Notes under the pieces: model-generated | Databases searched by the model: none | Seen by the model: only the letters and a program-made list of their open reading frames with translations | What the model was told of the DNA's origin: nothing | IMG/VR virus record: IMGVR_UViG_3300001346_000011 | Coordinates: 1-64,000 of that record | DNA length: 64,000 nt | Origin: an uncultured virus (IMG/VR IMGVR_UViG_3300001346_000011) | Lineage: Duplodnaviria > Heunggongvirae > Uroviricota > Caudoviricetes > Kyanoviridae | Direction: 5' to 3' (one strand) | In this document: one piece after another, positions 52,311-63,128 of the stretch | Layout of the letters: each line of letters begins with the position of its first letter | Numbering within the stretch: position 1 is the first letter of the stretch | Program-made: the position numbers and the translations under genes

Positions 52311-52321
52311 TGTTTTTGCTC

Positions 52322-52446
52322 CTTTATAGCACGGGGATCTTGTCCCACCAACCTGATTTTCACCTTACATTATTCATAAGTTCTTCGTCGGTTGACCACG
52401 GTTTGTCCTGCTGAATCTGGTCAGATTCTGCATTAGTATTATTTAT
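52322..52446 (-). ncRNA. Candidate structured 5' leader RNA of the 1243-aa gene
   Basis: GC-richer non-coding stretch between a late promoter (52440-52446) and RBS; stems GAATCT/AGATTC, CAACC/GGTTG, CTTAT/GTAAG, GGGA/TCCC. Confidence 0.5.
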
Positions 52447-56615: not shown

Positions 56616-56656
56616 GTGACTCCTTTTTTAGTATTTATTGATTTTTGGTAAAGGAA

Positions 56657-58822: not shown

Positions 58823-58837
58823 AGTTTTTTATAATTC

Positions 58838-58857
58838 AGGGAGTGTTGCCACTCCCT
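58838..58857 (-). other. Perfect GNRA-loop hairpin between genes
   Basis: Minus strand AGGGAGTG-GCAA-CACTCCCT; no U tract follows. Confidence 0.7.
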
Positions 58858-58872
58858 AAACTGTATTTTATA

Positions 58873-59331
58873 TTATGCGTCGTCTGTGAAGTCGTCGTCA
58901 TCTGTGTTAGCAACGTCGTCATCACCCGCTTCTTCAACTTTAACTTTTCCAGAACTAGCCGTCGCAAAATCCCATGCAAGTTTTGTTCCATCTAATGCAT
59001 TTGATCCTGTTGCACTTGGTTGTGCTACTGTTAAAGTACGTCCTGAAATTTTACTTACACCGTAAGTTTCATTGTCAGAACCTTGTACTGAAATTGTCAT
59101 TTCACCTGCAACTAAAGCCGCTGGTAATTTGCCAGTTGTTAACGTACAAGTAACCTCAGTATCTGTGGCACCTGTTTCAGCAACAACAAACTTTTTAGTT
59201 CCTTTTTGTCTGACAATAGTACCTTCTACAACACTTGATCCATTGTGAAAGTTAACTTTGATTTCATTTGCACCAGCAGTTGCACCGCCAGCCGCTGTTG
59301 TAAACAGTCTTTTATTAAGTGGTCGTCCCAT
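58873..59331 (-). CDS. Probable virion protein (152 aa, MGRPLNKR...)
   Basis: Late promoter and strong AAGGAG RBS; A/T/G-rich composition. Confidence 0.8.
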   Translation of the reverse strand: MGRPLNKRLFTTAAGGATAGANEIKVNFHNGSSVVEGTIVRQKGTKKFVVAETGATDTEVTCTLTTGKLPAALVAGEMTISVQGSDNETYGVSKISGRTLTVAQPSATGSNALDGTKLAWDFATASSGKVKVEEAGDDDVANTDDDDFTDDA

Positions 59332-59351
59332 TTGTTTTCTCCTTTTTTAGA

Positions 59352-59431
59352 AGTCCAATCCGGGTTCTAGCCGGTACGCAGTGGGTTAATACTGCATAAG
59401 ACTTTGACACTAGTCAAAGTGCGTTTGAACT
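59352..59431 (-). ncRNA. Candidate cloverleaf (four-way junction) 5' leader RNA
   Basis: P1 AGTTCAA/TTGGACT, P2 ACTTTGAC/GTCAAAGT, P3 TATGCAGT/ACTGCGTA, P4 CCGG-CTAGAAC-CCGG; lies between late promoter (59437-59443) and RBS. Confidence 0.7.
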
Positions 59432-59439
59432 AAAGGTAT

Positions 59440-59712
59440 TTATCGTTTGCTGAGTGATGCTATCAGTTCAACTTTTGAGAATTTTTTTGCTAAATTTATG
59501 GCTTCCACAAGCACAGCATTGGCTTGTTCTAGATAGTGATCTCGCTTGGTTCTGCGATAATCTATCAATATTGTGGTGTATTCGTCATACATTTTGTTCA
59601 GTGTGTTTTCTAATTTTTTAATGTCTTTGATGAACATGCCATGATTTTTCTTCCAAACCTGCAGTCTGTCCATGTACTCTCTGAATTCTAATAATATCTG
59701 TTCGTGTTCCAT
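59440..59712 (-). CDS. Hypothetical helical protein (90 aa)
   Basis: Intact ORF 1 nt downstream of the hemB-like stop. Confidence 0.7.
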   Translation of the reverse strand: MEHEQILLEFREYMDRLQVWKKNHGMFIKDIKKLENTLNKMYDEYTTILIDYRRTKRDHYLEQANAVLVEAINLAKKFSKVELIASLSKR

Positions 59713-59713
59713 A

Positions 59714-60514
59714 TTAAATTTTTCCCATTATATCTCTTGCTCCATATGTGACTAAAAATTTAGCACCTGCTTTGTGATACACTTTAGCAATTTCAATTTG
59801 ATGTTCTATGGTTGGCAATCCTTTGTATTCATCAGACACTTGATACACACCAACAGGAATATATGATCCTGCATTTATCAAACCTAATTCACTCAAACTG
59901 TGTTGTGCTGGTTTAAGCAGGAGATAATCTGCCTTTTGAGTTTTAAATTTATTTGCTGTGGCAATCATTTCTGAATCACCATTGATGGGCAATTGGTATA
60001 TTCTTTCAGTGGTTGGTGTACTGTCTGCAAGATCTCTAAATGAACTGTAAAACACACTTCTATATTTCACATATGCCATCACTTCACGATTGGTTTCAGA
60101 TTTTAAATTATGCACTGTGTTGTCTCCCATGTCCGATGGAGCCAATATGTCTGCACCTGCTGATTCTAATTTCTTACCCAAATCAATCAACAATGCTTCA
60201 CTGGTGTCTGGTTTATCCATTACTCTACAATGTCCATCTGGCAAAGTAGAACACAAACATACATCTACAATTAATTGTATTTTAGGAAATTTTGTTTTTA
60301 TTTGATTTACAATTCTTTGATTAAAACTCCAATCAGGAGTCCAAGTTTTATATTGTGGTGTGATAAACAACAAGAAACTGTCAACACCTTTGTCTACATC
60401 TTGTTGTATCTGATCGTTAATTAAGATTTCGGAAAAACTACTATTGTGGACGCCTAATCCAGCCGTTTCTGTTCTGCCTTTTTCGTTGACAAACAATGGC
60501 TGGATTAAGTCCAT
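59714..60514 (-). CDS. hemB: Porphobilinogen synthase (ALA dehydratase)-like protein, shortened (266 aa)
   Basis: DLIQPLFV, DVCLC.....GHC (Zn), GADILAPSDM, KY.S.FY..FRD, YQ, LLKPA, YQVS.EY, GA....TY.A; start at 60514. Confidence 0.88.
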   Translation of the reverse strand: MDLIQPLFVNEKGRTETAGLGVHNSSFSEILINDQIQQDVDKGVDSFLLFITPQYKTWTPDWSFNQRIVNQIKTKFPKIQLIVDVCLCSTLPDGHCRVMDKPDTSEALLIDLGKKLESAGADILAPSDMGDNTVHNLKSETNREVMAYVKYRSVFYSSFRDLADSTPTTERIYQLPINGDSEMIATANKFKTQKADYLLLKPAQHSLSELGLINAGSYIPVGVYQVSDEYKGLPTIEHQIEIAKVYHKAGAKFLVTYGARDIMGKI

Positions 60515-60518
60515 ATGA

Positions 60519-60722
60519 TTACTTCTCTTCTTTTTTAGGAAGTGCCGCACACTGTTCTTCGTCTGCTGGCAGACCAGTGTTTTTATCATAGATCCAAACA
60601 TACGAATAAGTGATGTTGTCATCAGTCATTGAACATTTTTTTCCAAATGATACTCTTGGTTCTTTAATAGAACAAGCCGACACTGTGAAGAAAGTTAATA
60701 TTAATATTGCAATACTTTTCAT
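60519..60722 (-). CDS. Small lipoprotein (67 aa)
   Basis: MKSIAILILTFFTVSAC: signal peptide with lipobox; two further Cys; AAGGA RBS. Confidence 0.75.
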   Translation of the reverse strand: MKSIAILILTFFTVSACSIKEPRVSFGKKCSMTDDNITYSYVWIYDKNTGLPADEEQCAALPKKEEK

Positions 60723-60847: not shown

Positions 60848-62020
60848 TTATGCAAACGAAATGTTTGACATAGCAACCTCACCAACATAGTCCCCAGCAT
60901 TTCCTAGTGAAGATGCTGTGTTGTTTAACTCTACATAACCATATCTAGTCATGAAAGAAACAACTGGTTCAAAAGTTGATGGGTCAAGTACAACACCGCT
61001 AGACATTAACGGAATGTATGGGCAATAGAACGCCGCCGCATCTGCTTCAGATGAGCCTTTGTATCCTACCAATACAGCCGAATCGTCTGCCGCATATGTG
61101 TCAACATAGATTTTCATCGCACTGTTTAAAGTTCCAACCATTTTTTGGTTAGTTGGTGCTTCAAAAGAACCTTCAGTTGTTCTTGCGAACGCTGAAGTTG
61201 TTGCAGATTGAAGTACAGTTAAAGCCTGTGGTGATACCACAGCCCAGTTACCTGCACCACGTCTTGTTCTTTGTGCAATTTTATTAGCAGTTCTGTTGAT
61301 TAAAACAGCCAAAGCCGCGTGTTCATCACCTACGAATGTTGCCGTACCTGATACTGCCGCTTGGTTGAATGTTTCTTCAGTTGCCGCTAAAGTTCTTAAC
61401 GAGTTGATGACTTCTTGGTCGATTTCAGCAGTAATTTCTTGTGCTAATGCCGCCATGATTTCAGCCTCTACGTCAATACCTTGTTGAGCTTGAGCGTCTT
61501 GAGCAGATTCAAATGTCCATCTTGCTTGTAACTTTCTGCTTTTTGCTTCAACAGTTTGTTTCAAGATTTGAATTGACATTGCTTTACCACCAGTACCTTC
61601 TTTAGTGGCTGTTGCGTCTGCATTACCATCTGGATCTGCTACATCGTTACCTGAATAACCTTGTGCAATTGCAAATGGTGATAATGCTTCAGCCCCTGCC
61701 GCTAGTCCGCCGCCTGATGTTGCCGCTTCTGCATATCTTACTCTTAGTGTGTGGATTTGTCCAACTGGGCCAGTCATCGGTTGTACTCCAACCAATTCGT
61801 TAGCAATTACAGTAGGCATAACCCTTCTTATCACAGGTAGGATCACTCTGTTTAAAGTTGCAACGTTACCGGCAGATGTAGCACCTGCTGTTGCTGACTC
61901 TGAAAGATACTGTTTAGTATTTTCTAAAGTAGCCGCCATAACTGCTTTTTTATTTCCAGTTAGACCTTCTAATAACGCACTCTTTGTGTCCTGCCAGCGA
62001 GTTTCTGTTAGTTCTGACAT
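60848..62020 (-). CDS. gp23: Major capsid protein (T4 gp23-like, 390 aa)
   Basis: LPVIRRVMP..IA...VGVQPMTGP.GQI..LR, VEAKSRKL.ARWT.E.AQD, EI..EID.E, FYCPYIPL, F.P...FMTRYG; start MSELTE at 62020 with AAGGAG. Confidence 0.96.
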   Translation of the reverse strand: MSELTETRWQDTKSALLEGLTGNKKAVMAATLENTKQYLSESATAGATSAGNVATLNRVILPVIRRVMPTVIANELVGVQPMTGPVGQIHTLRVRYAEAATSGGGLAAGAEALSPFAIAQGYSGNDVADPDGNADATATKEGTGGKAMSIQILKQTVEAKSRKLQARWTFESAQDAQAQQGIDVEAEIMAALAQEITAEIDQEVINSLRTLAATEETFNQAAVSGTATFVGDEHAALAVLINRTANKIAQRTRRGAGNWAVVSPQALTVLQSATTSAFARTTEGSFEAPTNQKMVGTLNSAMKIYVDTYAADDSAVLVGYKGSSEADAAAFYCPYIPLMSSGVVLDPSTFEPVVSFMTRYGYVELNNTASSLGNAGDYVGEVAMSNISFA

Positions 62021-62039
62021 TGTGTTTTTCTCCTTTTTT

Positions 62040-63128
62040 TTATATCCCAGCAAGTCTTCTAATATCAACGATGTTGCTATTGAATTGATTGCTGTTTACA
62101 ATGTTAATTTGTTTATCGCCTGTTACTTCTGTGCCTTCATTTATAGCCTGTTTTTTCGCTGGAGTCCTACCGTTTAGAACAGATGGTATGTACTTTTCGA
62201 ATTGCTTTCGTAAAGCACCCGTCTGCACACTCTCCAGTAGATTGTTCATTATTTCTTTTTGTTCTGTGTTCAATGGTTGTGTTAACTCATTGATCACTTC
62301 ACTTCTCTCTGCCGCTTCTTTAATTGTAGCAATTTCTTGTTCTTTTGCTTCAATTACTTTTTGCTTCTCATTGACAGTCTTCATCGCTTCTTCTGCCTGT
62401 AGTTTCGAAATGTCCACTACTTTTAGAAGTTTTGCTGTTTCACCTTTTTCGTTCAAGAATGATTGTGAAAATTCTTGTTGATAAGATTCGAACAGTCTGC
62501 GACCAAAGTCGTTTTTGCGAGCCGCTTCAATGTCTTCTTTTAATGAACTAATCTCTTGTTTAAGAGTTTTGCCCACTACTTCTGACACTTTTTCAGCACC
62601 TTTTTTCACAAAGTTACTTCTAACTTTTTCAAAATGTGCTTTCGCTTCTCTGATAAGACGTACTTTTGTTTCAGCAACGTCTTGTTTGTCTTTTTGAAAT
62701 TCTGAAATTTCTTTAGACAGAGCTTCTACCACGAAGTCCTCAAGTTTAACAAAATTTTCTGCCATAACTTTTTGGTCTGAGTGTAGTTCAGCAACTTCGC
62801 CTTTAAGTTGATCAAAAACAAATGCTTTTAACTTTTCAGTGTGTTCACCGATTTGAGTAGCATACTTAACTTTTTCTTCTGCAAGTTGCTTCTTGTCTTC
62901 TGCGAACTCTGCCATTTCTGCTTCGATTCTTTCAGATACCATTTTATCAACAGCCTCTGTCAAACTTGCTTTGTCGTGTTCATACTTCTCTGCAAATTCT
63001 TTACGAAGATCAGCAGTGGCAGAAAGTTTGTTTTCTTCAACCTTCTGGTTCCATGCGGATTCTATTTCTGCTCTGATCTCTTCCGAAATTCCGTTATTTT
63101 CAAAAAGTGATTTCAGTGCTTCTAACAT
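62040..63128 (-). CDS. gp22: Prohead core scaffolding protein
   Basis: Coiled-coil, E/K-rich; position between protease and capsid. Confidence 0.8.
   Translation of the reverse strand: MLEALKSLFENNGISEEIRAEIESAWNQKVEENKLSATADLRKEFAEKYEHDKASLTEAVDKMVSERIEAEMAEFAEDKKQLAEEKVKYATQIGEHTEKLKAFVFDQLKGEVAELHSDQKVMAENFVKLEDFVVEALSKEISEFQKDKQDVAETKVRLIREAKAHFEKVRSNFVKKGAEKVSEVVGKTLKQEISSLKEDIEAARKNDFGRRLFESYQQEFSQSFLNEKGETAKLLKVVDISKLQAEEAMKTVNEKQKVIEAKEQEIATIKEAAERSEVINELTQPLNTEQKEIMNNLLESVQTGALRKQFEKYIPSVLNGRTPAKKQAINEGTEVTGDKQINIVNSNQFNSNIVDIRRLAGI

Follow-up and report, generated by a model that had tools for sequence, protein, structure and literature searches.

Operators placed in messenger leaders and read by a phage protein are known from the targets of the T4 gene 32, gene 43 and regA products and from the coat-protein hairpin of MS2, and T4 transcribes its late genes from TAAATA-type boxes, with the start about six bases downstream. 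Among catalogued structured leaders, freshwater-2 (Rfam RF02980, of the Cis-reg type) has a public description that, to our knowledge, names neither organisms nor genes. We take its source to be Weinberg et al. (2017, NAR 45:10811). A literature search for freshwater-2 and RF02980 returned nothing on the family, and the word 'freshwater' does not occur in the main text of PMC5737381. Here we analyse a freshwater-2 element in a stretch of 64,000 nucleotides from an uncultured virus (positions 1 to 64,000 of the IMG/VR record IMGVR_UViG_3300001346_000011, hereafter the window), where it forms the minus-strand leader of a gene for a 152-amino-acid (aa) protein starting with MGRP. Taken as a whole, our best explanation, which we consider probable, is that this copy is a cis-acting leader of three hairpins, possibly read by a protein, which stands ahead of a gene for a probable virion protein and would keep the 5' end of its message paired.

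When all 4227 Rfam families were scanned against the region, positions 59329-59419 of the minus strand matched RF02980 (73.9 bits, E = 4.8e-11; the family's gathering score is 49.9), the match covering model positions 1-84 of 84 and not being truncated. No other Rfam family exceeded its threshold anywhere in the window or in the 71.6-kb record from which it comes, and 11 of 20 diverse relatives likewise passed the RF02980 cut-off. The family consensus includes the hairpins P1, P2 and P3, the last with its UAGAAC loop, followed by the Shine-Dalgarno (SD) sequence and the AUG, and excludes an outer stem, P0, which the window RNA is able to form. That the window element belongs to freshwater-2 is, in our judgement, virtually certain. 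The initial annotation, drawn up from the sequence alone, had presented it as an uncharacterised RNA and had proposed an Infernal comparison with Rfam as a check; by that very yardstick the full-length match above the cut-off refutes its novelty, and the element is already catalogued, not new.

Read in the direction of transcription, the locus opens with ATAAATA at 59437-59443, a TATAAATA-like box of the T4 late-promoter type, which was read from the sequence, lies ahead of the gene and overlaps the TAA stop of an upstream 90-aa open reading frame (ORF). Behind it come, all on the minus strand, the 5' strand of P0 (AGUUCAA, 59425-59431), the hairpin P1 (59401-59420; 8 bp, UAGU loop), the hairpin P2 (59375-59398; 8 bp, with a UAUG/CGUA base containing a U-G wobble, and a C-rich loop), the hairpin P3 (59360-59374; CCGG/CCGG closing a 7-nt CUAGAAC loop, N-UAGAAC in the family) and the 3' strand of P0 (UUGGACU, 59352-59358), which lies within the GGACU box of a long-leader subtype. 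RNAfold and the Rfam alignment both give the three hairpins, and the minimum free energy (MFE) structure from RNAfold gives P0 as a closing stem of 7 bp including one G-U pair (59431-59425 with 59358-59352). The SD, AAGGAG, occupies 59339-59344 and the ATG of the ORF 59329-59331; together with the A-rich spacer between them (59329-59344) they make up the final positions of the Rfam model, up to position 84. This four-way arrangement is both the MFE and the centroid structure of the minus strand of 59332-59443, and none of 200 dinucleotide shuffles folded as well as the leader itself (-30.7 kcal/mol against -17.6 ± 3.0, z = -4.34). The four stems, the box and the ribosome-binding site (RBS) described in the initial annotation were thus all located on this strand. 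In the MFE structure the CCUUU just past the box also pairs with part of the SD; these letters would lie upstream of the expected start if transcription begins as at T4 late promoters.

Relatives of the element were collected by two routes. Protein homology led to 46 viral loci encoding homologues of the 152-aa protein, representing 26 unique leaders, and the motif with an upstream TAAATA box was present in all 46. The RNA pattern matched at least 121 stretches, 80 of which were taken with full flanks, and every one of these had an SD and an ATG downstream, the product starting with MGRP in 78. Applied to 168 sequences (the window and L002 to L168), a regular expression for the motif failed on L154 alone; the 167 that fit it correspond to 140 unique leaders. 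As a control, the same pattern was run on a prokaryote genome collection, where it hit 56 places; nine of them combined paired P2 and P3, a box, an SD and an MGR(P/A) product, and the other 47 were without that full combination.

A covariance model built from seven leaders (R1) matched 89 of 96 sources picked at <90% mutual similarity. In the alignment of these 89 relatives, which was fitted to the model and in which the fetch pattern had fixed two columns of P2, leaving P1 and P3 unconstrained, the three hairpins were paired in 97.0% of cells against 67.7% in shuffles, and the covariation score of 0.640 (against 0.144) was reached by none of 500 shuffles. When the partners were displaced by 1-3 columns, pairing fell to 27-50%. 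P1 showed changes on both sides in all seven modelled pairs, and in P3 all four pairs covaried with 97.6% of cells paired; P2 was paired throughout (100%), two of its seven pairs covarying and the other five never varying. Two MAFFT alignments (A1 and A5), which mis-register P1 and the 5' flank, were left out of the pair counts. The hairpins P1, P2 and P3 are kept by compensatory change, and the structured 5' leader described in the initial annotation is thus conserved.

Conservation of letters adds to that of the helices. Across the 26 leaders retrieved through the protein, and thus independently of the RNA pattern, 29 columns are invariant, including UUAUG, CGUA and UAGAAC, and 17 of the invariant letters fall in P2 and P3, among them the wobble pair and six loop bases; around 50 variants of the P3 stem occur among the 140 leaders. 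Further downstream, in 129 of the 140 leaders AGGA precedes the ATG by 11-13 nt, and the SD begins 0-18 nt past P3, with a median of 10. A mutual-information scan ranked helix pairs in all of the top 11 positions, with register shifts of the SD alone below them, and it revealed no pair beyond P1, P2 and P3, the alignment of the loops being too poor to exclude a pseudoknot. Two further contacts had been considered. One, between CCCA of the P2 loop and UGGG at the start codon, was dropped, given that codon 2 hardly varies and the contact is beyond RNAfold modelling; the other, between the P3 loop and UUCUA of the GGACU box, was set aside, as it is not kept in ACU variants.

The outer stem behaves differently from the three hairpins. 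Its 3' half is supplied by the GGACU box, which 46 of the 140 unique leaders have and 94 lack; 42 of the 46 also have the promoter box and served as the test set for P0. A duplex of the 5' flank with the GGACU box at -5 kcal/mol or better was found in 13 of these 42, most of the remaining leaders retain just a 3-bp GUC/GAC core, and in six the 5' flank is too short. In MFE structures of the whole leader (n = 41), at least five bases of the box pair with the 5' flank in 21 cases and 0-2 bases in 11. When all 42 long-type leaders were aligned to a second covariance model that includes P0 (R2), 75.5% of the cells of this stem were paired, whereas P2 and P3 reached 100%; taken alone it did not stand out from shuffled partners (75.5% against 75.2%, a level attained by 195 of 500 shuffles, and a covariation score of 0.113 against 0.117), and one of its seven pairs was unpaired in 24 of 41 cells. 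P0 is real in the window and its near relatives, and one subtype retains part of its complementarity; the cloverleaf shape, an addition specific to this lineage, does not belong to the functional core. Separately from this, the GGACU box is kept in leaders that have no complementary 5' flank (L056, L073, L110, L112, L127 and others), and in many leaders P1 likewise ends in GGAC right before UUAUG.

These results bear directly on the idea of a tRNA mimic, raised in the initial annotation, in which tRNA-handling enzymes or the ribosome would read the cloverleaf. In its favour, the window MFE has a four-way junction of tRNA size, closed by a 7-bp stem and with a loop of 7 nt on the final arm. The same annotation had remarked that the hallmarks of a tRNA are missing, in agreement with ARAGORN, which found no tRNA or tmRNA in the window and no tRNA in 60 loci of the family, and with the Rfam matches, which up to E = 10 include no tRNA model. 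Since, in addition, P0 lacks covariation and is absent from most of the family, the mimic reading is unsupported, and we give it practically no weight.

The position of the leader behind a late-promoter-like box, also noted at the outset, held up well. In the window, which is 97% coding, 16 of the 17 coding-strand [AC]TAAATA boxes lie 5-129 nt upstream of gene starts; ATAAATA as such occurs no more often than chance predicts (16 times, with 17.9 expected), and it is therefore the placement of the boxes, not their number, that is telling. Within the family, a TAAATA box is found at most 75 nt upstream in 134 of the 140 unique leaders, and four of the six without one are cut by the contig end. 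Leaders behind the boxes of the window usually measure 5-43 nt, the exceptions being freshwater-2 (105 nt) and a leader of 129 nt at 52311-52439 on the minus strand, before a 1243-aa ORF, which is not structured in comparison with shuffles (z = -0.36). The 17 sites offer a usable map of putative late promoters for the phage of the window.

The gene behind this leader (58873-59331, minus strand) encodes a protein for which neither Pfam nor PHROG gave a match. Its homologues in metagenomes number 1010, and the 120 of them that were listed bear only the name 'hypothetical protein' or coordinate labels; a search of cluster representatives retrieved 161 at E <= 0.001, many with long unrelated C-terminal parts. 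What is common to all proteins behind the motif is the N-terminus MGRP(L/I)(N/K)K, whose third residue is encoded by CGT in 65 cases and AGA in 60, a synonymous mix indicating that this stretch is conserved as protein and not as RNA. AlphaFold2 (pLDDT 83.9) predicts a pair of small beta-barrels together with an acidic tail that is disordered. Foldseek found no match in the PDB at E <= 0.001, VIA-align returned generic Tudor/SH3-like barrels alone, with Z up to 5.8, and the ESM Atlas yielded the protein's own cluster plus leads under 0.9; similar predicted structures from viruses belong to uncharacterised phage proteins, two of them from the jumbo phage Atu_ph07. The barrel domain is also matched in 56 stretches of a 7702-aa protein (P0171), where it is a repeat module.

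Cultured phages gave a first hint at function. The family profile finds a 234-aa protein of phage Phosso starting with MGRPLKK, and EST35_0383 of PA5oct, which starts with MGRPIK and is annotated as 'structural protein, ESI-MS/MS'; according to PMC7318152, 93 gene products of PA5oct were tied to virions by mass spectrometry. The 152-aa product is thus probably a virion protein, as judged from this homology, and the suggestion in the initial annotation that the gene family includes a structural protein is borne out by the PA5oct homologue. In PA5oct and Phosso the MGRP genes have CTAAATA or ATAAATA 25-30 nt before the ATG (L233, 2840-2890; L235, 2660-2720, minus strand); inspection of these short leaders by eye showed no hairpins. 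The search with R1 covered the capsid-gene regions of PA5oct, Phosso and a Vibrio jumbo phage and gave no match there. The freshwater-2 leader co-occurs strictly with the MGRP gene, yet the MGRP N-terminus also occurs without the RNA, and freshwater-2 looks like an insertion between promoter and RBS in an uncultured aquatic clade. The same box and N-terminus extend to cultured Pseudomonas and Sinorhizobium jumbo phages.

The 3' side of the gene is structured as well. In the window a predicted 13-bp hairpin with a GCAA loop (58833-58862, minus strand) directly follows the MGRP stop codon, and of 57 unique 3' regions 49 have a stable structure (<= -10 kcal/mol within 70 nt) behind the gene, so that the MGRP gene often looks like a small transcription unit of its own. 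A T-rich stretch past the last helix was present in only seven of the 57, and a terminator scan detected none on the minus strand here. The sequence of this hairpin varies by lineage, the loop often being GNRA or UUCG. In one relative, L032, a second ORF starting with MGRPLPSRFFG follows about 25 nt past the first MGRP stop with an SD of its own and no freshwater-2 leader, being a tandem paralogue.

How would such a leader work? That it acts in cis on the MGRP gene seems to us very likely. A protein operator is a more tentative proposal, which we find possible, somewhat short of an even chance even when the case of the gene's own product is counted in: the invariant base of P2 (UAUG/CGUA with its U-G wobble), the adjoining P3 and the UAGAAC loop would constitute the recognition site for a protein, most simply a late protein of the phage and possibly the product of the MGRP gene itself; the bound protein would set the level at which the MGRP product is translated, and the first helix (P1, or P0 in the window lineage) would keep the 5' end of the messenger paired and hence long-lived. 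The combination of freely varying stems with frozen letters suggests specific recognition, and a protein is the simplest reader because neither a conserved junction nor a pseudoknot that could provide a ligand pocket was found. In the narrower version, which we regard as unlikely, the virion protein reads its own messenger, binding the P2-P3 module through its basic MGRP N-terminus or a small barrel domain; translation would then be shut off once free protein exceeds capsid uptake, and in the window lineage P0 might bring the RBS beside the bound protein.

Several observations weigh against this explanation. The SD lies outside every conserved helix, 0-18 nt from P3, and its mean predicted unpaired probability is 0.63, so that a bound protein would leave it uncovered in some cases. 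All downstream proteins have in common no more than about 11 residues at the N-terminus, and since PA5oct and Phosso have the MGRP N-terminus without the RNA, this peptide is independent of the leader. When transcription is assumed to start at the 6th nt past the box, at most three 5' nucleotides are left unpaired in 104 of 134 leaders against 326 of 670 with the 5' part shuffled, which would suit protection of the message, the enrichment being modest (78% against 49%) and dependent on the assumed start site. Finally, metatranscriptome contigs from four marine runs of one study cover the region at even depth and bridge the leader, contigs of this kind having neither ends nor strands, being unable to reveal a start and possibly including carried-over DNA.

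The strongest competitor is a plain 5' stabiliser or translation enhancer, in which the hairpins guard a very highly expressed monocistronic late messenger against 5'-end-dependent decay and keep the RBS open without any specific factor. The helix close to the assumed 5' end, the strong hairpin past the gene and the position of the SD outside all conserved helices agree with it, as do the short leaders of PA5oct and Phosso, which lack the RNA as expected for an optional booster. For such a role, however, helices suffice and letters are unneeded, yet 17 letters of P2 and P3, with the wobble and six loop bases, are invariant within stems that otherwise vary freely; moreover, P1, the most 5' helix, was missed by RNAfold in 16 of the 134 unique leaders having a box. 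We therefore rate the stabiliser as rather unlikely, although it deserves more credit than the remaining alternatives. One of these is an RNA resembling put, acting on RNA polymerase to permit late read-through of downstream signals. Such an activity would fit a tandem arrangement of hairpins that has invariant letters and follows the promoter box immediately in 134 of 140 leaders, and it would also fit the next three genes downstream, which have no box of their own until 56632-56638 and are parted from the MGRP gene by the hairpin; but the fixed spacing of AGGA to the ATG and the link to a single gene family fit translation control better, only seven of 57 downstream regions have a T-rich stretch past the last helix, and no put-like family is among the Rfam matches up to E = 10. 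We hold it to be improbable.

A riboswitch, in which the three hairpins would fold around a small ligand and set expression of the gene, appears still less probable. Invariant unpaired letters within a conserved structured 5' leader are what one would look for, and riboswitch-like motifs are known in phages; in one relative (L028) a manA RNA (RF01745, 1136-1349 on the plus strand), scoring 68.2 bits where the cut-off is 55.2, precedes the freshwater-2 element by about 80 nt, so that two catalogued phage motifs are neighbours there. On the other hand, mutual information, in an alignment whose loops are too poorly matched to exclude a pseudoknot, added no pair to those of the three hairpins, conservation does not extend to the four-way junction, no alternative helix that sequesters the SD or acts as a terminator is present, a single copy per genome stands ahead of a particle protein, and the Rfam type is Cis-reg and not riboswitch. 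Compared with all of these, the protein-read cis-acting leader accounts best for the frozen letters, and we retain it as our preferred explanation.

As far as their sequences tell, the carriers of the element are uncultured aquatic jumbo phages of about 320 kb with a T4-type (gp23) capsid, that of the window being marine. The gp23 major capsid gene of the window is at 60848-62068 (Pfam Gp23, E = 3.8e-100), and the surroundings of the leader correspond to a T4-type head module, with a prohead-core-like 362-aa protein upstream of the capsid gene and very large baseplate- or fibre-like proteins encoded downstream. The closest cultured relatives of the capsid protein, at 62-69% identity, are from the jumbo phages Phosso, a 349-kb Vibrio phage, PA5oct and XaC1. 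The record of the window is rated 21% complete, and related contigs of 318 and 328 kb are 91-92% complete. In these two near-complete genomes a scaffold-like gene is followed by the capsid gene, at most one small ORF and then the motif with the MGRP gene. Between capsid gene and leader the window has an ALAD-like gene as well as the 90-aa ORF. The former (59714-60622, minus strand; Pfam ALAD, E = 2.3e-43) encodes a 302-aa homologue of delta-aminolevulinic acid dehydratase (porphobilinogen synthase), a gene of the tetrapyrrole pathway within the head module of a jumbo phage. Exactly one freshwater-2 copy was found in each of the five records searched, the 318- and 328-kb contigs among them. Among 50,697 phage records the 152-aa protein had no tblastn match, and blastn with the leader gave one chance match of 23 nt.

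Two further observations concern the distribution of the element. The nine true copies retrieved by the prokaryote control (L190, L193, L196, L202, L216, L217, L220, L227 and L229) reside on contigs within metagenome-assembled genomes of diverse bacteria, one contig measuring 335 kb and two pairs sharing one bin each; they are probably phage contigs binned with bacteria, and their bacterial labels are thus uninformative on the host. RNA libraries listing the region are of marine, estuary and salt-marsh origin, and contigs were examined from the four marine runs. In one of these (X3) the contig departs from the window at 59347, at the RBS, and its other strand continues as a different freshwater-2 leader, which points to a second carrier strain in that sample.

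Our analysis adds context to a motif that had been an orphan, namely jumbo-phage carriers, a single copy, a late-promoter-like box, one gene family near the capsid gene and a homologue annotated as a virion protein, and this context may make freshwater-2 amenable to testing. If a protein indeed reads the RNA, the element would offer a new and compact case of dosage control over a particle protein of a phage, and should this protein be the gene's own product, the logic of the MS2 coat protein would have been carried over to T4-like giants; if it is a stabiliser only, it would be ordinary.

Set against known systems, freshwater-2 shares with the phage translational operators a short structured site in the 5' leader with sequence-specific letters; in the operators, such letters in loops and bulges are read by a phage protein that feeds back on translation. 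These operators, however, overlap or abut the SD or AUG, whereas the conserved part of freshwater-2 ends 0-18 nt before the SD, and it is not a member of the T4 gene 32, gene 43, regA or MS2 operator families. With 5' stabilisers of the ompA leader type it has in common a helix at or near the predicted 5' end, a probably abundant message and a 3' hairpin; such stabilisers need no invariant letters, of which freshwater-2 has many. The put RNA of HK022 offers tandem hairpins right behind a phage promoter and action in cis; unlike put, freshwater-2 is tied to a start codon and one gene family. To tRNAs and tRNA-like RNAs the resemblance is one of size and four-way shape and is confined to the window, whose RNA fails tRNA detection and whose acceptor-like stem is not conserved in the family. 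The catalogued freshwater-2 RNA itself is by far the closest counterpart: it agrees with the window copy in the three hairpins and in the invariant letters UUAUG/CGUA and UAGAAC, and its model likewise closes at the 3' end with the SD and AUG. The window lineage adds to it the outer stem and the GGACU box, nothing else setting the window copy apart.

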